From positions 24,732 to 88,731 of the forward strand of contig JBEKML010000002.1 of assembly GCA_050008535.1 (NCBI GenBank): a DNA stretch of 64,000 nt. Reading direction: 5' to 3'. A program made the translations under genes and the position numbers. The notes under the pieces are model-generated. The model made no database searches. It was not told the DNA's origin and was given only the letters and a program-made list of their open reading frames with translations. Below are positions 572-55,020 of the stretch, one piece after another. Each line of letters starts with the position of its first letter. Position 1 is the stretch's first letter. The stretch comes from Minisyncoccia bacterium. Lineage in GTDB: Bacteria; Patescibacteriota; Minisyncoccia; UBA6257; 2-01-FULL-56-20.

Positions 572-2743
572 TTATTTTACCATTCCATCGCCCCGCCATG
601 CCTCTACCATAAGCATCGTTCCCGGACGGAAGATGCCGTAGATCTCTTCTGTCACGAACGGCATGAAGGGATGGAGCATTTTGAGCGATGCCAAGAGCAG
701 ATATTCAAGAAGAGCGTAGGATCCGGCTTTTTGCGCGGCATCTCCGTCGCGCAAAGCGATCTTTTCCGCTTCTACAATTTTGTCCGCAAGCGTGTGCCAG
801 ATATAGTGGTAGAGCTTTTCCGCGGCAAGATGGAATTCAAACGCCTCAAGATGCGCCGTTACTTCTGTTTTGAGCGCATCAAGCGCTTCTATCTCCATGC
901 GCCTCTCAATGGTGAATTTTTCCGGGTCCACGGGCGCTCCCTCCGCTGGTTTGTTCATATTGATGAACCGCGCGATGTTCCATATCTTTGTTGAGAAGTT
1001 CCGGTAGCCCCGGATGCGGTCTTCGGAAAGCTTAATGTCGCTTCCGGCCGAGGCGCCGATCACGAGCGAGAGCCGCGTAGCATCCGCGCCATATTTCTCC
1101 GCCATTGCGAGGGGGTCAATGCCATTGCCGAGCGACTTGGACATTTTCCGCCCCTTTGCATCGCGCACGAGGCCGTGCAAATATACTTCGCGGAAGGGGA
1201 CCGTGCCCATAAGACACGTGGACATAAGGATCATCCGCGCGACCCAGAAGAAGAGAATGTCATAGCCCGTTTCCAACAGTGAGTTCGGGAAATAAGTTTT
1301 AAGGTCTTTCGTTTTGTCCGGCCAACCGAAGACCGAGAACGGCCAGAGTCCGGAGGAAAACCAGGTGTCCAGAGTGTCGGGGTCCTGTGTCCATTTGTCG
1401 CCACGCGGCGGTTCAGTGCCAACGTAAACTTCTTCGCCCTTGTACCACACCGGGATCCGGTGCCCGAACCAGATCTGGCGCGAGATGCACCAGTCGTGCA
1501 AATGATCTATCCAGTTGAAATAGATCTTCCCGAAGCGGTCGGGGGTGATCTTCACGGCGCCGCTCGCTACGGCTTCACGCATGAGCTCTTTTGGTGTTTT
1601 TTCTTCGCCGTCCGCTGCCTTGAATTTTCTCTCGACTGCCACGAACCACTGTTTCAAGATCTGCGGCTCAATGATGCCTCCGCCGCGGTTGTTCGTCGCA
1701 ACGCGGTGGGCGTAATGCTCATCCACTTTTTCTATAAGCCCCTTCTTTTTTAATTTCTGGACGATGAGCGGCCGCGCTTTTTTGATGTGCATTCCGGCGA
1801 ACTCGCCTGCGATGGGGAGTAGCTTTCCGTTCAGATCAATGATTTGTTCCGTATCAAGATGGTGCCGTTCGGCGATCTCGAAGTCCGTCGTGTCGTGCCA
1901 CGGCGTGATGGTCATCACGCCCGTCCCGAACGCCATGTCAATTGACGGATCTTTCACGATCGTCGCCTTCACGGGGCCATTGATCCACTCAAGATCAATC
2001 ATTGCGCCGTGCTGGTATTTCTCGTACCGCTTGTCGTCGGGATGCATCACAACGTACTTGTCGCCGAATTTCGTCTCCGGCCGCGCCGTGGCGATCGTGA
2101 ACGGGCCGTATTTCAAGTAATAAAAAGGAGCCGTTTCTTCAATCCACTCCACTTCGTCATCCGAGACCGTCGTTTGCAACTGCGGATCCCAGTTCACGAT
2201 CCGGTCGCCGCGGTAGATAAGGCCCGTTTCGTACATCTTCTGGAATGCCGCGCGGACGGCGCGCTCGCGCGTGGCGTCGAGCGTATACGTTTCGCGGCTC
2301 CAATCAAGCGACGCACCCATCCGTTTCACCTGCTTCACGATCGTATCGTGGCTCTTTTTTGCGTACTCATGCACGCGCCGCAAAAATTCCTCCCGGCCGA
2401 GATCGTAGCGGCTTTTCTTTTCTTCTTTTGCGATCATTTTTTCCACGCGCGATTGCGTGGCGATCGCCGCATGGTCCGTGCCTGGGACCCAGAGCGTTCG
2501 CTTGCCGCGCATGCGATTCCATCGGACGAGAATATCTTCGATCACAAGCATCGCCGCATGTCCCATATGCAATTCTCCCGTCACATTCGGCGGGGGAAGT
2601 ATTATAGAGAATGGTTCCGCGTCCGCGGCCGTCACGCCTTTTTCCACGCATACATCCGGATTGAAATATCCCGACCGCTCCCATGCGGCCGCAATGCGGG
2701 ACTCCACTTCTTTTATGTCATAGCGCGGTTCCATGGCTGGCAT
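572..2743 (-). CDS. valS: valyl-tRNA synthetase (short form, 723 aa)
   Basis: PPPNVTGELHMGHA (HIGH-type) and KMSKSLGNGIDP (KMSKS) class I motifs in ValRS-typical context. Confidence 0.88.
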   Translation of the reverse strand: MPAMEPRYDIKEVESRIAAAWERSGYFNPDVCVEKGVTAADAEPFSIILPPPNVTGELHMGHAAMLVIEDILVRWNRMRGKRTLWVPGTDHAAIATQSRVEKMIAKEEKKSRYDLGREEFLRRVHEYAKKSHDTIVKQVKRMGASLDWSRETYTLDATRERAVRAAFQKMYETGLIYRGDRIVNWDPQLQTTVSDDEVEWIEETAPFYYLKYGPFTIATARPETKFGDKYVVMHPDDKRYEKYQHGAMIDLEWINGPVKATIVKDPSIDMAFGTGVMTITPWHDTTDFEIAERHHLDTEQIIDLNGKLLPIAGEFAGMHIKKARPLIVQKLKKKGLIEKVDEHYAHRVATNNRGGGIIEPQILKQWFVAVERKFKAADGEEKTPKELMREAVASGAVKITPDRFGKIYFNWIDHLHDWCISRQIWFGHRIPVWYKGEEVYVGTEPPRGDKWTQDPDTLDTWFSSGLWPFSVFGWPDKTKDLKTYFPNSLLETGYDILFFWVARMILMSTCLMGTVPFREVYLHGLVRDAKGRKMSKSLGNGIDPLAMAEKYGADATRLSLVIGASAGSDIKLSEDRIRGYRNFSTKIWNIARFINMNKPAEGAPVDPEKFTIERRMEIEALDALKTEVTAHLEAFEFHLAAEKLYHYIWHTLADKIVEAEKIALRDGDAAQKAGSYALLEYLLLASLKMLHPFMPFVTEEIYGIFRPGTMLMVEAWRGDGMVK

Positions 2744-2855
2744 CGATAATATCTGGATTATAGGGGATTTTTTTGCGGAAGGGAAACTATTTCGCGCCGG
2801 ACAGCGTATACTATATAATAGGTAAACTACAAAGGTCGTTTTAATTTCTCATTTT

Positions 2856-3164
2856 ATGGAAGAACAAAAAGATAAGAAGGTTTGCGGGTGCGGCGGGTGT
2901 ACCTGTATGAGCGGGTGCGGATGTGGGTGCGGGTGCGGTATGAGCGGGTGCGGCCATCGGCATGGCCGGATCATCCTGCGGATCGTGATTGCGATCATCG
3001 TAGTCGTCGTGGCGTTTTCGATCGGCGTAAAGCTCGGCGAACTCCGAGGGGCGTACAATGGTGGCTACTACGGGGAATACGGCCGTGGCTACCGGATGAT
3101 GGGGTACCCGATGATGAATGGTTACTACGGGGCGCCGACGGCAACGTCGACACCGACGAAGTAG
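2856..3164 (+). CDS. small Cys/Gly-rich membrane protein (N-terminal CGCGGCTC..GCGCGCGCG..GCGH cluster, one TM helix, Gly/Tyr-rich tail)
   Basis: 102-aa ORF; repetitive GC codon tract; followed by clean rho-independent terminator at 3185-3217; upstream TATACT/TATAAT box. Confidence 0.5.
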   Translation: MEEQKDKKVCGCGGCTCMSGCGCGCGCGMSGCGHRHGRIILRIVIAIIVVVVAFSIGVKLGELRGAYNGGYYGEYGRGYRMMGYPMMNGYYGAPTATSTPTK

Positions 3165-47024: not shown

Positions 47025-48980
47025 CTAGAAGAGCGTAACGGTCAGCGACACCGGTTGTGAGGTCGTGCCGCCGGGACCCTTGCATTTCAGGGTCCCTTTG
47101 AGGGTCATTGGAGGCGTCCAGAGAGGTACCGCAATCGTCACGGAGTTGTTGACGGGTTGCTTGCCCTCGATGTCGCCCGACGCAACGCAGGAATCTGCAT
47201 CGGTCGTTTTCCACGTGATGGTCGCTGTCTCTCCTGCGCGAACTTTCTCGGGGGAGACGGAAAGGGTGATCGTCGGCTTTGGCGAAGCGGATTCTGATCC
47301 GACATCCGCGGGAGCGTCATCAGTAGGGTTCCTCGCGATGAAGATCATATTCCCATCAGAGCCGGGACGGGGACGACGGGAAACGTTTGCCATCTGCCCG
47401 CTACTGCCGCCACCGCTCATCAGAAGCGCTTGGCACTCGTTCGCCGCACACGCATACATCTGTGTGCCATCGGGCGAGACACCAAACCCAACTGCGAGCA
47501 GGTTGCTCGTTACTGACAGGTTCGTGGCCGTACCGGTCTTCGCGTCCACCGAGATGAACCGCGAGAGGCCGGCGACGGGGTCGGCGATAGCAACAAGAAT
47601 ACTGCCGTGCGTTTCGTCCGCTGCGATCCGGATAGGGGACAGTCCATCCCCCAGGATCGCACGGAGATCCACACGCTTGGTCTCCTTCATCGTCGCGATG
47701 TCAAAGATGACCAGTTGCTTGTCGGGCTGGGCAAGGAACGCCCCAGTGCCGACCGCGGGTCCCGAATTGAAGGCGGCGAGTTGCCATCCGCCAGCAGTCG
47801 CGCTGGCATCGGCTCCTACCTGGGTGATCCCGGGGAGGAACAGAAATCCCTTGGTGCTCATGTCGGGAACCGAGATTCGCCAAAGGGTTGAATCCCCGCG
47901 CGAGTAGACGATAGCATCCAGCTCTTTGCCGAGTTGCGCCATCGTGAGCGACCACGGATAGCTGCCGACCGACGTTGAGATCATCGATGGCGTGTCTTGG
48001 GCTAGATCAAAACTCGATACTAGCCCATCTTTGGGTTGAGTGACGCAGGCATAACCACTTCTGGCCGCTACGGCCATGGTCTGCTTACCATTGTATGCCG
48101 TGTGCACTCCGCTGGCGTTCGTCCAATCAACCACCATACTGCCAGCGCCCGCGCGTACGATTGACTTCGTTGTTTCGTCGTATGCTATGCCGCTGCCCCC
48201 TTCCGTCAAAAACCCATTCGGGGTCACGGTGGTTCCCGGGCCGACCAGGAATTTCCAGATATGCTGTTGCTTGTCGTCGGTGAGTGTTCCCTGTTGCAGT
48301 TGGAATAGCTTTCCTGACGAATCAAGCGCGAGTGTGTTCTGGTTCCCCTGGTAGCCGAAACTCATCGAGTTCGAGGTGCCTGCCGGACACTTCACTGACC
48401 AGCGGTAGAACTGCGGCGGCGACCAGCTAAAACTGAGGGTCACCCAGATTTTGTTGGGGGCCGTTCCTTCCAAGAGGGTCAGATCCACCCATGGATCTGC
48501 CAGGTGCAGCACGCACCCTGCGGCGAACCCAGACCCGTTGATCTGGATATTGCCGATGACCGATCCCCCGTCATCAAGATAGACCACATTCGGCGTGATC
48601 GAACTGATTACTGGGACCGGTGGCGTCACCGTGAGTGTCATTGAGGCGCTCTTTGTCGGGTCTTGCGTGGATGTCGCTGTTACCACGACCGTCATTGACG
48701 TCGTCGTGGACGGGGGGGTGAACAGCCCGCTTCCGGTGATCGTGCCCGCGCTCGCGGACCATGTCACCGCGGAACTGTAATTCCCCGTACCCGTTACTGA
48801 CGCCGAACATTGGGATGTCGCACCGCTTACGATCGTCGCCGGTGAGCACGTGATGCCCACCGATGTGATGGTAATGGGCGTGGGGGTGACTCCGCCGCTG
48901 GAACTTCCACCACCACTGGGGCAACCCGTCCCTGCCACGATGGCAAGGACGAGGATAGTCCAAAGAACACTCGTTTTCAT
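47025..48980 (-). CDS. lipoprotein-like surface protein: Big_2 Ig-like domain + beta-propeller-like region + C-terminal Ig-like domain
   Basis: Signal + LAIVAGTGC lipobox-like Cys; ITCSPATIVSGATSQCSASVTGTGNYSSAVTWSAS Big_2 motif; C-terminal domain resembles adhesin repeat. Confidence 0.65.
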   Translation of the reverse strand: MKTSVLWTILVLAIVAGTGCPSGGGSSSGGVTPTPITITSVGITCSPATIVSGATSQCSASVTGTGNYSSAVTWSASAGTITGSGLFTPPSTTTSMTVVVTATSTQDPTKSASMTLTVTPPVPVISSITPNVVYLDDGGSVIGNIQINGSGFAAGCVLHLADPWVDLTLLEGTAPNKIWVTLSFSWSPPQFYRWSVKCPAGTSNSMSFGYQGNQNTLALDSSGKLFQLQQGTLTDDKQQHIWKFLVGPGTTVTPNGFLTEGGSGIAYDETTKSIVRAGAGSMVVDWTNASGVHTAYNGKQTMAVAARSGYACVTQPKDGLVSSFDLAQDTPSMISTSVGSYPWSLTMAQLGKELDAIVYSRGDSTLWRISVPDMSTKGFLFLPGITQVGADASATAGGWQLAAFNSGPAVGTGAFLAQPDKQLVIFDIATMKETKRVDLRAILGDGLSPIRIAADETHGSILVAIADPVAGLSRFISVDAKTGTATNLSVTSNLLAVGFGVSPDGTQMYACAANECQALLMSGGGSSGQMANVSRRPRPGSDGNMIFIARNPTDDAPADVGSESASPKPTITLSVSPEKVRAGETATITWKTTDADSCVASGDIEGKQPVNNSVTIAVPLWTPPMTLKGTLKCKGPGGTTSQPVSLTVTLF

Positions 48981-49179: not shown

Positions 49180-49251
49180 GCCGGAGTAGCTCAATGGCAG
49201 AGCAATGCTTTCGTAAAGCAGAGGTTGGAGGTTCGACTCCTCTCTCCGGCT
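49180..49251 (+). tRNA. tRNA-Thr (CGU)
   Basis: Identical to tRNA-Thr(UGU) at 41257 except anticodon arm (...GAGCAATGCTTTCGTAAAGCAGAGG...); anticodon loop TTCGTAA. Confidence 0.8.
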
Positions 49252-49259
49252 CCACTATA

Positions 49260-49622
49260 ATGAAGATAATGCGAGGAAGAGATGTTTCGAGCGGTAGTCT
49301 TTTTGGCGAATCGGGGCCGGGAGAAGGAGGCCCTTTGGCGCCAGGGTACCACTTCAACGAGGGGGGAGAAATAATTGATGATAAGGGGGATGTCTATAAC
49401 GGTGACTATACGCTGAAGCGCAAGGCGCTCGATCCGTATTTCGAAAAGGCGCTTAACTCGGTTCGCGAGAATCTTCAGAACGAAGGAAGAAATGAGCCGG
49501 AAGAATTTGTGAGACAACTTGCCCGCATAGAAGCGGCGCAAGCGAGGGCGGAAGATAAGAGAAAAGAAAAGGAACAGAAACGCGCGGAAAGGGCAAGAGC
49601 GCGGGAAGCGAAGCAGAATTAA
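49260..49622 (+). CDS. hypothetical protein with Lys/Glu/Arg-rich C-terminal tail
   Basis: 120-aa ORF starting 9 nt after tRNA; ORF-track start 49194 lies inside the tRNA. Confidence 0.45.
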   Translation: MKIMRGRDVSSGSLFGESGPGEGGPLAPGYHFNEGGEIIDDKGDVYNGDYTLKRKALDPYFEKALNSVRENLQNEGRNEPEEFVRQLARIEAAQARAEDKRKEKEQKRAERARAREAKQN

Positions 49623-49630
49623 AGATAACC

Positions 49631-50702
49631 ATGAAAGAAATCGAGAACCTTGAAGCATTGCAGTCCGAAGCCCGCCGGCTGGGCGGGCGTCTTTGACCTT
49701 GCGGCAAAAGAAAAAAGAATAGGGGAGTTGGAGGCGGAGATGGCGTCCACAGTGTTTTGGAAAAATCGCGAGGCGGCGGATGAAAAGATCCGCGAACTCG
49801 GCATTCTCAATGACGTCGTAAAACGCTACCGTGAAATTGAGAGCGGCATCGCCGCGCTTGAACGCGGACGCACGGCGGGCGCGGGCGCCGACTCCGGTGC
49901 CGCCGGCAATCTTGACGAAGGAACATTCTACGAGCTTAAAAAGAAATTCAGGGACTTTGAACTGAAGCAGCTTTTCACGGGACGGTACGATGCGCAAGCG
50001 GCGGTGCTTTCTATCTATCCGGGCGCGGGCGGCGAGGATGCGGAAGATTGGGCGCGGATGCTCGGCCTCATGTATGAAAATTACGCGAAGCGGCGCGGAT
50101 GGAAAATACGGGTGGTCGACGACAATATCCGTTCGCGCACGATCGAAATAAAAGGGGAGCATGCCTATGGGTATCTAAAAAAAGAATCCGGCGTGCACCG
50201 GCTCGTGCGCATCTCCCCGTTCTCGCCGAAAAAACTGCGGCATACTTCATTCGCGCTTATTGAAGTAGTTCCCGACCTGCCGCCGCTTGAAGAGTCAAAA
50301 TTGCAGATCCCCGAAAAGGACCTGAAAGTTGAATTTTATCGTTCGGGCGGTCCCGGCGGACAGAACGTGAACAAGGTGGAAACGGCCGTGCGCGTGGTGC
50401 ATGTGCCGACCGGACTCGCCGTGAGCTCGCAGGCGCAGCGGTCACAGGCCCAGAACCGCGAATATGCGCTGAAACTTCTGAAAGCGAAACTTTTCCACCT
50501 CATGGAAAAAGAAAAAGTGAGCGAGATCAGCGCCCTGCGTGTGAAGGTGAAGCCGGAATGGGGGAACCAGATCCGTTCCTACGTATTAAACCCCTATCAA
50601 TTGGTAAAAGACCACCGCACCGAAGTAGAAACAGCGAAGGTAGAAGGTGTTTTGGCGGGCGATCTGGACCTTTTCATTGAAGCGGAACTGGAAATGTTAT
50701 AG
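49631..50702 (+). CDS. prfB: peptide chain release factor 2 with programmed +1 frameshift (frame 0: 49631-49693, shift at CTT TGA C 49691-49697, frame +1 to 50702)
   Basis: Frame-0 MKEIENLEALQSEARRLGGRL then in-frame TGA at 49694; +1 frame continues DLAAKEKRIGEL...SGGPGGQNVNKVETAVR (GGQ motif); GGGCGGG upstream of CTTTGAC. Confidence 0.9.
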
Positions 50703-51417: not shown

Positions 51418-52329
51418 ATGTTCACCGTTGTCTCGCGCATTTTCCAATTTGGGTTCAAGAATTTCTGGCGGAACGGCTGGCTTTCCACGGCGACCGTGGC
51501 GATCATGACGCTTGCGCTCCTTGTGTTCGTGTCGCTCATCATGTTCGGGGTGGTCACTGACCGGGCGGCGGCCTCCATCCAGGATAAGATAGACATCAGC
51601 GCCTATTTCAGCACGAACACTTCCGAAGACCAGATTTTGAATATCAAGCAGTCGCTTGAAGGATTGCCCGAGGTGCAGAGCGTGCAATACATTTCCCGCG
51701 ACCAGGCGCTCGAGATCTTCAAACAGAACCACGCGAACGATCCGACGGTGAGCCAGGCGATCAACGAATTGAACACGAATCCTCTTGAAGCGTCGCTCAA
51801 TGTCAAGGCAAAAGACCCGAGCCAGTATGCGGCGATCGCCCAACACTTGAGTTCGCCGGACATCGCGCAATATCTTGATGGGCAGCCGAGCTATTACGAC
51901 AATCAGAGCGTCATTGACCGCCTGGCAAAGATCGTGAAAGGGGTGGAAACCGGCGGCTTGGTCGTCACCTTCTTTCTTGCGCTCATCGCCGGACTTGTTG
52001 TTTTCAATACCGTCCGCCTTGCGATCTATTCCAACCGCGACGAGATCGGGGTCATGCGCGTCGTCGGCGCTTCCAATAGTTTGGTGCGGGGACCGTACGT
52101 GGTGGAAGGCATGATCTGCGGCACGATCGCGGCCGTGATCAGTTTGATCATCGCGGCGCCGGTGCTCTATGTCGTTTCGCCTTATCTCAATATTTTCATC
52201 CCCAACCTCAACATTTTTGAATATTTCTCCGCGCACATTGTCCGCCTGTTCGTTTACGAGCTGCTCTTCGGGATAATAATCGGTGCTTTCTCGGGTTTCA
52301 TTGCCGTGAAGCGGTACCTGAAGAACTAA
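51418..52329 (+). CDS. ftsX: cell division permease FtsX
   Basis: 4-TM FtsX topology with large periplasmic loop; follows ftsE. Confidence 0.85.
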   Translation: MFTVVSRIFQFGFKNFWRNGWLSTATVAIMTLALLVFVSLIMFGVVTDRAAASIQDKIDISAYFSTNTSEDQILNIKQSLEGLPEVQSVQYISRDQALEIFKQNHANDPTVSQAINELNTNPLEASLNVKAKDPSQYAAIAQHLSSPDIAQYLDGQPSYYDNQSVIDRLAKIVKGVETGGLVVTFFLALIAGLVVFNTVRLAIYSNRDEIGVMRVVGASNSLVRGPYVVEGMICGTIAAVISLIIAAPVLYVVSPYLNIFIPNLNIFEYFSAHIVRLFVYELLFGIIIGAFSGFIAVKRYLKN

Positions 52330-52332
52330 AGG

Positions 52333-52875
52333 CTAAAACCGCATATCGTACCAATCCAATCCGTAGATTTCTTGGATGAGGATTCTCTCGCCCTTGGCCC
52401 ACGTCCGATTTTTTTCTAGGCCGAGCAGTGTCACGCCCTCTTTTACGTGTTCTTCGCTTTTGCCCTCTATTTCCAAATACGGTGGCATTTTGGGGTAGAG
52501 GTCTATTTCAAAGACCCAATCTTTCAGCGCGAACGACGTTCGTTCTTTGTCCTGGTGCGCATATTTTTCAAGTCCGATCATCAAAAAAAGATCGGCTAGT
52601 TTCTCCGGCTCTGCGACCGTAAAATTTATTTCCTTATGCGTCCGTGCGGTGCCCAGGATGTCCGACTTTCCCTTCCACGTGACCTCATGTTTTCCGGCGC
52701 TATTGGAACGGATGCGCAAAAACCATGGATCTTTTCCCTCCTTCACTCCTATCGTCCGATACCAATCCACCCGCAAAACGGTTTCCTGTGTTTTTTGGGC
52801 CCCAAGCGCCGCGAGTTTTTCCTTTACCGCATCGGCGTCGATGTCCAGAACTGTCGTTTCGGTTTCGTGTGCCAT
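52333..52875 (-). CDS. CYTH-domain protein (triphosphate tunnel metalloenzyme family), paralog 1, degenerate N-terminal ExExK (ETETT)
   Basis: LRIRSNSAGK, YLEIEGKSEE motifs shared with paralogs 2 and 3. Confidence 0.65.
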   Translation of the reverse strand: MAHETETTVLDIDADAVKEKLAALGAQKTQETVLRVDWYRTIGVKEGKDPWFLRIRSNSAGKHEVTWKGKSDILGTARTHKEINFTVAEPEKLADLFLMIGLEKYAHQDKERTSFALKDWVFEIDLYPKMPPYLEIEGKSEEHVKEGVTLLGLEKNRTWAKGERILIQEIYGLDWYDMRF

Positions 52876-52953
52876 TTCGTCTTGTGTTGCTATTTTAACA
52901 AGTTTATACTTGAAGTAAAATCTTTACTTTTGCGGTCGGTATATAATAAATCC

Positions 52954-53469
52954 ATGGAGGAAATTGAATTGACGTATCTTGCGCGGGCGCTGCCTCCGGG
53001 CATTCTAAGTGCTCCGCGCAAAGAAATGCTTGATATTTATATTCCCGCGTCGGCGGAGCATCCTGATCTGCGGATACGGAGGGTCGGCGAAAAGTGCGAG
53101 ATCACCAAAAAGCGGCCGATCAAAGATGGGGATGCCTCCCATCAAATGGAAAACACCATTCCGCTCACGAAAGAAGAATACGAAGAGATGAGCCAGCTGA
53201 AAGGGAAGCGGACCAGAAAAACCCGCTACTATTACGAAGAAGGCGGAGCGCGGTATGAAGTTGATATATTTCGGGACGATCTTGCAGGGCTTGTGCTTGT
53301 TGATATTGAATTTGATTCACTGGAAAAGAAAAAGAGTTTTCATCCGCCAGCATGGTGCCTTGCGGAGGTGACGCAGGAGAAATTCCTTGCGGGCGGGATG
53401 GTTTGCGGGAAGCGGTATGCGGACATTGAGCCGCAGCTCGCCAAGTTCAACTATAAAAAGATCCTGTGA
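52954..53469 (+). CDS. CYTH-domain protein, paralog 2 (EIELT in place of ExExK)
   Basis: LRIRRVGEK, VDIEFDSLEKK; TATAAT ends 6 nt before ATG (leaderless-type). Confidence 0.65.
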   Translation: MEEIELTYLARALPPGILSAPRKEMLDIYIPASAEHPDLRIRRVGEKCEITKKRPIKDGDASHQMENTIPLTKEEYEEMSQLKGKRTRKTRYYYEEGGARYEVDIFRDDLAGLVLVDIEFDSLEKKKSFHPPAWCLAEVTQEKFLAGGMVCGKRYADIEPQLAKFNYKKIL

Positions 53470-53624
53470 AAAATTACGCAAAGGTAGGCAACCGCGCCGG
53501 ACGGCCCGCGTACCGCACCGCCTCGCAATTTCGATACAAGAAACAGGCAACCGTTTTAAAAACCAAAGCGGCAGAACGTAAACGGTTCAAACCCGGCCGC
53601 GGATGAATTTGATATACTCAACGG

Positions 53625-54215
53625 ATGAATATTGAATACGAAGCGAAGTTCTTAGACGTTGACAAGGATGAAATCAGGGGGCGTCTAAGGAATGCGGGAG
53701 CTGACCTCGTGCGGCCTGAATACCTGCAAAAAAGAATCCCGTTTCATCTTCCTAAAAACAAACGCTCAAAAGACGCCTGGCTTCGCGTTCGAGACGAGGG
53801 TGACAAAATAACCCTAAGCCTGAAAGTAGTAGACGGCGAAAAGATAGAAAACCAAAAGGAAATTTGCCTTAATGTCAGCAGTTTTGACGACGCCGTAAAA
53901 CTACTTGAAGCTATCGGTTGTGAACCGAAATCGTATCAGGAAACAAAGCGAGAGCTGTGGAAACTTGACGGAGTTGATATTACTATCGACGAATGGCCTT
54001 TTCTTGAGCCGTTCGTTGAAGTTGAAGGCTCGTCGGAGGAAGTAGTGAAAAGAGTTTCAGAAAAGATCGGATTCAATTATACTGACGCTCTCTTCTGCGC
54101 TGTCGGCAAGCTGTATCAAATGAAATACCATATTCATCCGGACGAAATAAACACTGCGTCAAAAATAGTTTTTGATATGGAAAATCCGTTTAGACGGCCT
54201 TCGGCCGGGTTCTAA
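53625..54215 (+). CDS. CYTH-domain protein, paralog 3 (canonical EYEAKFL ExExK motif)
   Basis: IEYEAKFLDVD, LRVRDEGDK, FVEVEGSSEE; TATACT ends 6 nt before ATG. Confidence 0.7.
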   Translation: MNIEYEAKFLDVDKDEIRGRLRNAGADLVRPEYLQKRIPFHLPKNKRSKDAWLRVRDEGDKITLSLKVVDGEKIENQKEICLNVSSFDDAVKLLEAIGCEPKSYQETKRELWKLDGVDITIDEWPFLEPFVEVEGSSEEVVKRVSEKIGFNYTDALFCAVGKLYQMKYHIHPDEINTASKIVFDMENPFRRPSAGF

Positions 54216-54261
54216 CGTTATCCATACCCGAAAAGGCAATTTCGTGTTATTATCTCCTCGT

Positions 54262-55020
54262 ATGCCGCAAATTTCCCTTCGCGCGGAAGAGATTTTTCAC
54301 ATCGGGAGCTTCCCGGTGACGAACGCAGTCCTTTTATCCACGATCGTACTGGTACTCCTTGCGGTGTTCGCCGTAGCGCTGCGGCGGAAACTTTCCTTCA
54401 TACCGGGCATGGTCCAGAACGTGATGGAGCTTATTATAGAGGGGGCGCTCTCGCTCATGGACTCGGTGCTTGGCAACCGGAAAACCTCCGAAAAATATAT
54501 GCCGATCGTTTTTACGGTATTCCTTTTCGTCCTGTGCTCCAATTGGCTCGGCCTGTTCCCGGGCGTGAGTTCGGTCGTAGTGCGTGAGGGAGCGGAAAGC
54601 GTGCCGCTCCTGCGCTCTCCCGCGAGCGACCTGAACTTCACCTTGGCGCTCGCCTTGATCGTGGTCACCTTCGTGAATGCGTTCGGCGTGGCGGCGGTCG
54701 GCCTGCGGAAGCGCCTCTCGGTATTCTTCAATTTCAAGGGGCCGATAGATTTTTTCATCGGCATCCTTGAACTTATCTCGGAATTTGCTAAAATTATCTC
54801 GTTCTCGTTCCGTCTCTTCGGGAACGTATTCGCGGGCGAGGTGCTCCTGGCCATCATGTCGTTCCTCGTGCCATACCTCGTGCCGCTCCCTTTTATGTTC
54901 CTGGAAATCTTCGTGGGGTTCATTCAGGCATTCATCTTCGGGATGCTCACGCTGGTCTTCGTCGCTATGGCGGTGGCCGAGCATGGCCACGAGGAAATAG
55001 AAACAGCAAAGGTCGGTTAA
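54262..55020 (+). CDS. atpB: ATP synthase F0 subunit a
   Basis: RLFGNVFAGE motif with essential Arg; 5-6 TM; ATG at 54262 (ORF-track start 54172 is upstream extension). Confidence 0.9.
   Translation: MPQISLRAEEIFHIGSFPVTNAVLLSTIVLVLLAVFAVALRRKLSFIPGMVQNVMELIIEGALSLMDSVLGNRKTSEKYMPIVFTVFLFVLCSNWLGLFPGVSSVVVREGAESVPLLRSPASDLNFTLALALIVVTFVNAFGVAAVGLRKRLSVFFNFKGPIDFFIGILELISEFAKIISFSFRLFGNVFAGEVLLAIMSFLVPYLVPLPFMFLEIFVGFIQAFIFGMLTLVFVAMAVAEHGHEEIETAKVG

Follow-up and report, generated by a model that had tools for sequence, protein, structure and literature searches.

Three CYTH proteins of old and separate subfamilies are juxtaposed by accident in a Patescibacteria species

The window analyzed here, a stretch of 64,000 nucleotides from a Minisyncoccia genome (Patescibacteria, candidate phyla radiation), carries three neighboring genes for CYTH proteins, P1, P2, and P3, between ftsX and the operon of the F1Fo ATP synthase. 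The CYTH or triphosphate tunnel metalloenzyme (TTM) fold is confirmed for all three proteins. P1, P2, and P3 represent three old, separately conserved CYTH subfamilies (F1, F2, and F3) that are widespread in Patescibacteria. They are intact, came to lie next to each other by accident, and most likely act as divalent-metal-dependent phosphohydrolases, probably in pool housekeeping. The cluster and its immediate surroundings contain the following features.

52333–52875, minus strand: P1 (family F1), 180 amino acids (aa), a CYTH/TTM protein of the SaTTM/Pyrococcus type.
52876–52953: divergent intergenic region between P1 and P2, 78 base pairs (bp), AT-rich (29% GC).
52954–53469, plus strand: P2 (family F2), 171 aa, a CYTH/TTM protein of the NeuTTM/CthTTM type.
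53625–54215, plus strand: P3 (family F3), 196 aa, a CYTH/TTM protein of the sister family of P1.
53483–54244: lineage-specific replaced segment that contains P3, delimited by blastn against the loci L085 and L005.
51418–52329, plus strand: ftsX (Pfam FtsX), at the end of the prfB-ftsE-ftsX run that precedes the cluster.
54262–55020, plus strand: atpB (Pfam ATP-synt_A), first gene of the F1Fo ATP synthase operon atpB-E-F-H-A-G-D.

The coordinates and strands of the three open reading frames (ORFs) agree exactly with those given in an earlier sequence-only reading of this DNA, and the order of the genes and the lengths of their products (180, 171, and 196 aa) are identical in four independent public assemblies (JGI, ENA). 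The description of the genes as tandem has to be given up. P1 lies on the strand opposite to P2, so the two form a divergent pair, and the 3' end of P1 converges with ftsX at a spacing of 3 bp. The distance from the P3 stop to atpB is 46 bp. The P2 start at 52954 fits the lengths of the homologs and the public gene calls; the longer ORF that starts at 52636 does not represent P2, as homologs and public gene calls begin at MEEIELTYL. The same earlier reading had named a single mis-assembled gene in fragments as the finding that would overturn it. This case is ruled out: the order is the same in the four assemblies, and each protein is of full length when compared with solved homologs.

P1 and P3 score 28.5 and 50.3 bits, respectively, against the Pfam CYTH profile PF01928, and both exceed its gathering score of 23.2 bits. 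P2 gives no match to Pfam and NCBIfam even at E<=1, so the Pfam search proposed earlier for all three proteins succeeds for two of them. The CYTH fold of P2 is accepted despite the Pfam miss because three other lines of evidence place it there. It matches NeuTTM (2FBL/3TYP) by phmmer at E=4e-12 over residues 1–144 with ~26% identity. Its AlphaFold model (mean predicted local distance difference test score, pLDDT, 96.3) has NeuTTM as the top PDB match (TMt 0.74, template modeling score). Finally, 27 of 107 members of its family match PF01928 (best E = 4.8e-8), most members falling below the Pfam CYTH threshold. The AlphaFold model of P1 (pLDDT 95.6) has SaTTM 7NS9 as the top PDB match, with a template modeling (TM) score of 0.82 over 180 columns. 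CYTH proteins of the SaTTM/Pyrococcus type are also the best sequence matches of both P1 and P3 by phmmer and by a profile search of PDB. The assignment of all three proteins to the CYTH fold thus bears out the earlier reading: the eight-stranded β-barrel tunnel is supported for P1 and P2 by structure prediction, which had been proposed as a check, and for P3 by the strong match of its family profile to that of P1 (given below).

That reading further held that the three genes diverged after duplication, and here the comparisons speak against it. A recent tandem duplication was considered and is ruled out by pairwise and profile comparisons. P1 and P3 share 29% identity, and BLASTP detects no similarity of P2 to either P1 or P3. 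The family profile of P3 aligns with that of P1 by hhalign at a probability of 98.75% (E=1.5e-16); the match between the family profiles of P2 and P1 is weak (hhalign probability 4.6%). Each protein has its own orthologs at 60–85% identity in Parcubacteria/Paceibacteria-type genomes, a word-indexed search returning 596 matches for P1, 264 for P2, and 3302 for P3. A profile search with the P2 family reached 139 clusters (50% identity) at E<=1e-30. In the CYTH sequence network of Vogt et al. 2021 (PMC8233210), the SaTTM type is cluster 3, and the NeuTTM/CthTTM type is cluster 2. P1 and P3 are distant sisters on the archaeal SaTTM/Pyrococcus branch, and P2 belongs to the NeuTTM/CthTTM branch of the superfamily.

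NeuTTM (Nitrosomonas europaea NE1496) and CthTTM, the closest type to P2, are bacterial inorganic triphosphatases (PMC8233210). P2 has the equivalents of NeuTTM E4 and E6, the pair Y29/K53 in place of Tyr-28/Lys-52, R40/R42 in place of R39/R41, K89/R91 in place of K85/R87, and the C-terminal acidic pair. However, the β1 Lys (NeuTTM K8) is replaced by Thr in P2 and likewise in most of F2, and the preceding Arg is replaced by Leu. An additional Lys of P2, K52, is conserved in its family where NeuTTM has Leu, and the ExE of the family usually begins with Asp. At its C-terminus P2 is extended by ~25 residues, and the conserved AGGxx[AC]GK motif of this extension is unmatched in the NeuTTM alignment. 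Given the Thr in place of K8, the specificity of P2 may differ from the tripolyphosphate (PPPi) hydrolysis of NeuTTM. P1 and P3 resemble SaTTM (Sulfolobus acidocaldarius Saci_0718, 7NS8–7NSF) and the Pyrococcus proteins 1YEM and 2DC4 in size (~180–200 aa), in the closed tunnel, and in the RxR and ExE motifs, the ExE standing at the same numbering (E135/E137). They differ from them in being bacterial (Patescibacteria) rather than archaeal, and the identity is ~20% only. The Phe of P1 and the Trp of P3 stand opposite an Ala in SaTTM (PMC8233210), and the Lys of the SaTTM ExExK is Thr in P1 and in most F3 members. Two further CYTH types serve for comparison. P3 carries W-x-R-x-R, said to define thiamine triphosphatases such as the mammalian 25-kDa enzyme (ThTPase; 3BHD, 5A64; cluster 8), P1 has an aromatic Phe at the equivalent position, and the ExE is kept, as in hydrolases, but the P1 model superposes on ThTPase with a TM of ~0.64, weaker than on SaTTM. 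CyaB and the Yersinia class IV adenylate cyclase YpAC-IV (2FJT, 3N0Y; cluster 10) have the same fold and size as the three proteins, but their HF motif, small residue, and ExA are missing here.

The motifs of the three proteins are as follows. P1 carries E4-x-E6-x-T8 (ETETT), W51-F52-L-R54-I-R56, and E135-I-E137-G. P2 carries E3-x-E5-L-T7 (EIELT), Y29, R40-x-R42, K52-K53, K89-x-R91, E102-x-D104, D117-x-E119, and, at 146–153, the C-terminal motif AGGMVCGK. P3 carries E4-Y-E6-A-K8 (EYEAK), W52-L-R54-V-R56, K67, and E132-V-E134-G. The sequence-only reading had ascribed two hallmarks to all three proteins. One of them, LR(I/V)R, is found throughout (LRIR in P1 and P2, LRVR in P3). The other, a C-terminal E(I/V)EG(K/S)SEE, is confined to P1 (LEIEGKSEE) and P3 (VEVEGSSEE), the corresponding strand of P2 being VDIEFDSLEKK. 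Its account of the N-terminal motifs was correct: in this genome only P3 has a complete ExExK, and in P1 and P2 both Glu are kept and the Lys is replaced by Thr. In the clade of P1, a further basic residue is gone as well (K79 to T).

The families differ in what is common at the position of the hallmark Lys. In F1, position 8 is Lys in 113 of 121 members and Thr in 8, the family consensus being MAHEIETK (EIETK), so that the Thr of P1 in the window is the minority state. In F2, the β1 position is Thr without exception among the 121 close members, and 104 of 131 cluster representatives have Thr there too, with ExE[RK]T as the common form. In F3, it is Thr in 94 and Lys in 25 of 121, so that here the Lys of P3 in the window is the minority state. 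Because Thr is invariant among close members in F2, the majority in F3, and a minority in F1, the exchange of Lys for Thr in ExExK appears, on these family-level counts, to be a stable, selected subfamily state and not decay. Within F1, the exchange recurs in P0016, P0036, P0056, and P0058 (mutually 70–74% identical) and at L044 1299–1850 (EIEAT), and in the group of the window's P1 it is coupled with K79-to-T, I5-to-T, and A69-to-G. The combination found in the window genome, Thr in P1 and Lys in P3, is the reverse of the family majorities (Lys in F1, Thr in F3), and it is possible that P1 and P3 complement each other in this respect within one genome. The other active-site residues vary little. 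E4/E6, R54/R56, and E135/E137 are invariant or nearly so in F1, which has 43 invariant columns, as are E4/E6, R54/R56, K67, and E132/E134 in F3. In F2, this applies to E3/E5, Y29, R40/R42, K53, K89/R91, and E119, also across 150 cluster representatives at 50% identity. The residues of F2 that align to NeuTTM Tyr-28/Lys-52, the catalytic dyad of that enzyme (PMC3440374), are kept in 127 of 134 (Y29) and 143 of 144 (K53) representatives.

The placement of the three genes was compared with that in other species, using 80 loci from a scan for the P1 family with one genome per species and 80 loci from a scan of metagenomes for the P2 family. The other two families are absent from 75 of the 80 F1 loci and from 77 of the 80 F2 loci; in other words, a P1-type or P2-type gene occurs without the other two families in ~155 other-species loci. 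Conserved synteny with atp or ftsEX genes was sought in the 80 genome and 80 metagenome loci and was not found. The closest F1 locus, L005 (87% identity), is the only one that keeps the order P2-P1-ftsX-ftsE-prfB, and at the remaining ones the P1-type gene is accompanied by neither P2 nor a true P3. Genes of the atp operon lie nearby in one of these only, L054, where atpB is 2.5 kb downstream of the F1 gene. Among the F2 loci, L085 (80% identity) is the only one with the arrangement ftsX-P1-P2...atpB, and P3 is absent there. The arrangement of P1, P2, and P3 as a trio is limited to the assemblies of this species, and the comparison with related genomes, which had been suggested as a check on the cluster, shows P1 and P2 alone in the nearest relative.

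Comparison of the DNA by blastn locates the difference. The window aligns with L085 and L005 at 78% identity up to 53482, where the alignment breaks, and homology begins again from 54245. The 762-bp segment with P3 (53483–54244) corresponds in L085 to 1416 bp (1643–3058) that contain two unrelated ORFs. These ORFs lie on the minus strand, encode 167 and 146 aa, and have no clear family, with a weak match to LPD3 (E=9e-4). The GC content at third codon positions (GC3) is 0.447 in P3, 0.56–0.58 in P1 and P2, and 0.63–0.78 in the flanking genes. Because of the homology break at 53482/54245 and the low GC3, P3 is regarded as an insertion, and the junction of P2 and atpB seems to be a variable insertion spot. 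The divergent pair of P1 and P2 is shared at about the genus level, and P3 is recently inserted. The side-by-side placement and the vicinity of the atp genes are thus a species-level accident, and since the cluster is not conserved, its adjacency to the ATP synthase operon carries no functional weight. Nor is a cluster of several CYTH genes exceptional in Patescibacteria, contrary to the earlier view that such a divergent trio is unusual: in 12 of ~165 other Patescibacteria loci, a stretch of 10 kb holds two or three CYTH genes. At L084 (7596–10546), a different CYTH trio lies on one strand, two of its proteins having a canonical ExExK (EFEIT/EVEVK types) and one being of the P1 type. Tandem CYTH pairs are also present in L075, L078, L080, and L083. 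From this trio and these pairs it follows that several more CYTH subfamilies exist in the phylum.

The 78-bp gap between P1 and P2 presumably holds both promoters, and one sigma-70-like site was found in it, on the minus strand at 52919–52892. In a scan of the cluster for promoters and terminators, the site counts were not above the shuffled expectation, and no terminator was predicted in the 46-bp gap between P3 and atpB. A search for riboswitches and other RNA elements around the cluster found the tRNA at 49180–49254 only and no thiamine pyrophosphate (TPP) riboswitch. No thiamine-related genes were found near the cluster, and a check with PADLOC for a role in anti-phage defence gave no match.

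In other Patescibacteria, genes of the three families are strongly conserved. The loci used for this comparison were chosen as best matches, and the following identities to the window are therefore biased upward. At L024, P1 has 73% identity, compared to 74% for EF-Tu, 64% for EF-G, and 41–70% for ribosomal proteins. At L169, P3 has 78% identity, compared to 54% for SecY and 41–47% for ribosomal proteins, and at L054, P1 has 67% identity and AtpA 55%. A plateau of ~100 sequences at 71–74% identity to P1, together with the 43 invariant columns, indicates real constraint on F1 despite the best-match bias; for F3, horizontal transfer is a possible explanation of the high identity. The F1 gene is embedded in the S10 operon at L024 (9020–12426), flanked by rplB and rpsS, and lies directly after secY at L073, L075, and L078, and the F3 gene lies between secY and adk-map (secY-CYTH-adk-map) at L169 (3678–7016). 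A HIT gene is directly upstream of F1 in 13 loci, a NUDIX gene in 9, and an HD gene in 5; MazG is near F2 in 5 loci; and elsewhere F3 is part of a Ham1-Nudix / PPase-CYTH-HIT-HAD island. These neighbors point weakly to nucleotide and phosphate housekeeping. Three candidate fusions, P0372, P0426, and P0247, combine HD with F2, F2 with NUDIX, and the N-terminal part of thymidylate kinase (Tmk) with F3, and could be artefacts of gene calling.

P1, P2, and P3 would most likely act as follows. Inside the tunnel, a basic patch of the RxR and Lys residues would bind the triphosphate moiety, the β1 ExE and the C-terminal (E/D)xE would hold two metals, and cleavage of the terminal phosphoanhydride would be carried out by a water molecule that a metal activates. 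According to Vogt et al. 2021, class IV cyclases are marked by HFxxxxExExK, a small residue replacing the first Arg of RxR, and ExA (PMC8233210). The same study describes hydrolases as keeping ExE and ThTPases as carrying W/YxRxR, the aromatic residue of which stacks on the thiazole ring (PMC8233210). The cyclase signatures are absent from all three proteins: three or fewer residues, and no HF pair, stand before the first Glu, RxR still begins with Arg, and ExE still ends in an acidic residue. By these signature rules, P1, P2, and P3 are predicted hydrolases and not class IV cyclases. At the position of the W/YxRxR aromatic, P3 has W52-L-R-V-R (109 W and 12 F among 121 F3 members), P1 has F52-L-R-I-R after an invariant W51, and P2 has D-L-R-I-R with no aromatic residue. 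Since F52 and W52 occupy the position of the thiazole-stacking residue of thiamine triphosphatase, the substrates of P1 and P3 may be heterocycle-linked triphosphates, e.g., a nucleoside triphosphate (NTP), a deoxynucleoside triphosphate (dNTP), thiamine triphosphate, or a similar compound. The aromatic residue is best taken as a hint of a ring-bearing triphosphate and not as evidence of membership in the ThTPases, and the motif may be convergent: neither phmmer nor a profile search of PDB revealed a sequence relationship of P1 and P3 to ThTPase. The substrate of P2 probably differs from that of P1 and P3 and could be inorganic tripolyphosphate, short polyphosphate, or a related compound. The physiological role of the three proteins is probably the housekeeping of nucleotide and phosphate pools.

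Several other explanations of the cluster were weighed against this one. Since the hallmark Lys is replaced by Thr in P1 and P2, and the P1 clade has lost K79 besides, these two could be catalytically inactive paralogs that bind a ligand or serve in regulation, P3 being the sole enzyme, as the sequence-only reading had suggested as one possibility. We consider this unlikely. Thr at this position is the rule in F2 and the majority state in F3, and the metal ligands, the RxR Arg, and the equivalents of the NeuTTM Tyr/Lys dyad (PMC3440374) are conserved under strong purifying selection. The unified two-metal mechanism of TTMs depends critically on the acidic residues and on the leading Arg of RxR (the catalytic one in AtTTM3 and ygiF), and the other basic residues of the tunnel mainly coordinate the substrate (PMC4641920), so that loss of the β1 Lys need not abolish catalysis. 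In P2, the extra K52 or the C-terminal GK motif of F2 (K153 in P2) could, in addition, supply the missing positive charge. It is even harder to regard the three proteins as class IV (CyaB-type) adenylate or nucleotidyl cyclases that make a cyclic-nucleotide signal, and of the explanations considered here, this one has the smallest share of our confidence. It would account for the automatic JGI annotation 'adenylate cyclase class 2', for the matches to NCBIfam TIGR00318 cyaB (36.5 and 42.6 bits; P2 has no match), and for the superposition of the P1 model on Yersinia AC-IV at a TM of ~0.77. Yet these TIGR00318 scores are below the curated cut-off of 57.95, all three AC-IV signatures fail, and the best structure and sequence matches are TTM phosphatases.

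Two explanations take their cue from gene neighborhood. The view that the cluster is a specialized, co-regulated module for the handling of (poly)phosphate or NTP, coupled to the adjacent F1Fo ATP synthase, draws on physical adjacency, on the gap of 46 bp before atpB with no predicted terminator, on the divergent promoter region shared by P1 and P2, and on the atpB gene downstream of F1 at L054. The synteny analysis has largely refuted it: the arrangement is found in the assemblies of this species only, the nearest relative has no P3 at the site, ~155 loci of other species have F1 or F2 in the absence of both the other families and atp genes, F3 genes elsewhere lie in unrelated contexts, and the base composition of P3 is foreign. 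We hold such a module to be very improbable. Somewhat better placed, yet still rather doubtful, is a core role of the P1 and P3 families linked to translation or RNA, e.g., the processing of RNA 5'-triphosphate ends or of a triphosphate of the guanine-nucleotide or alarmone kind, instead of general house-cleaning. The positions of F1 in the S10 operon and after secY and of F3 between secY and adk are in keeping with it, as are conservation that rivals or exceeds that of translation proteins at L024 and L169 and the presence of RNA triphosphatases in the TTM superfamily (PMC8233210). However, placement in ribosomal operons is seen in a minority of loci, the genes of the window are 20 kb from that operon, no RNA-binding features were identified, the choice of best matches raises the identities, and horizontal transfer could explain that of F3.

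Housekeeping of nucleotide and phosphate pools by three hydrolases thus remains the explanation we favor, and some observations weigh against it. We know of no member of the three subfamilies that has been biochemically characterized, and a search of one literature library on CYTH proteins and the candidate phyla radiation found no paper linking the two. The absence of the hallmark Lys from P1 and P2 means that activity or substrate could differ substantially from those of characterized TTMs. No association with a neighboring gene extends beyond 13 of 80 loci, so that each is a minority pattern and weak guilt by association. Finally, an enzyme with a simple house-cleaning function would be expected to show less than the very high conservation seen here, which hints at a more central one.

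Other features of the window were seen upstream of the cluster. The prfB gene for release factor 2 (49632–49698, on to 50702) shows the canonical programmed +1 frameshift. Its short first ORF runs from the ATG at 49632 to CTT TGA C (49692–49698), and the frame goes on in +1. Public gene calls instead place the start inside the gene, at a TTG (350 aa) or an ATG (320 aa). On the minus strand, 47025–48980 encodes a protein of 651 aa with an N-terminus resembling a signal or lipoprotein sequence (…GTGC…), linkers rich in Ser, Thr, and Gly, and a series of Ig-like repeats ('ATSQCSA…VTWSAS'); this is probably a surface protein. The gene for tRNA-Thr(CGT) at 49180–49254 is overlapped by long spurious ORFs on both strands and lies just upstream of an ORF for 120 aa (~49260–49622) that is rich in Lys, Glu, and Arg and has no family match.

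The cluster is a coincidental juxtaposition of ordinary CYTH genes and reveals no new functional module; what is new is the addition of members with a variant hallmark motif to a known superfamily. As large conserved subfamilies have Thr in place of the hallmark Lys, ExExK is unusable as a criterion of activity, and the label 'adenylate cyclase class 2' is probably wrong for proteins of the F1, F2, and F3 types. Several CYTH subfamilies are maintained in the ultra-small genomes of Patescibacteria, where purifying selection on them is very strong and the genes sometimes lie in ribosomal operons. What bacterial CYTH/TTM proteins do physiologically is still unclear (PMC3440374). The F1, F2, and F3 families would be good targets for biochemical characterization. 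There is some chance, though not a large one, that these at least three uncharacterized core CYTH subfamilies, conserved at the level of EF-Tu, mark an unrecognized and possibly essential triphosphate-processing activity in reduced genomes. Such an activity could take the form of nucleotide-salvage gating, processing of 5'-triphosphate RNA or alarmones, or a bacterial thiamine-triphosphatase-like enzyme with WxRxR. If this were true, bacterial CYTH proteins would gain the physiological role that has long been unclear.

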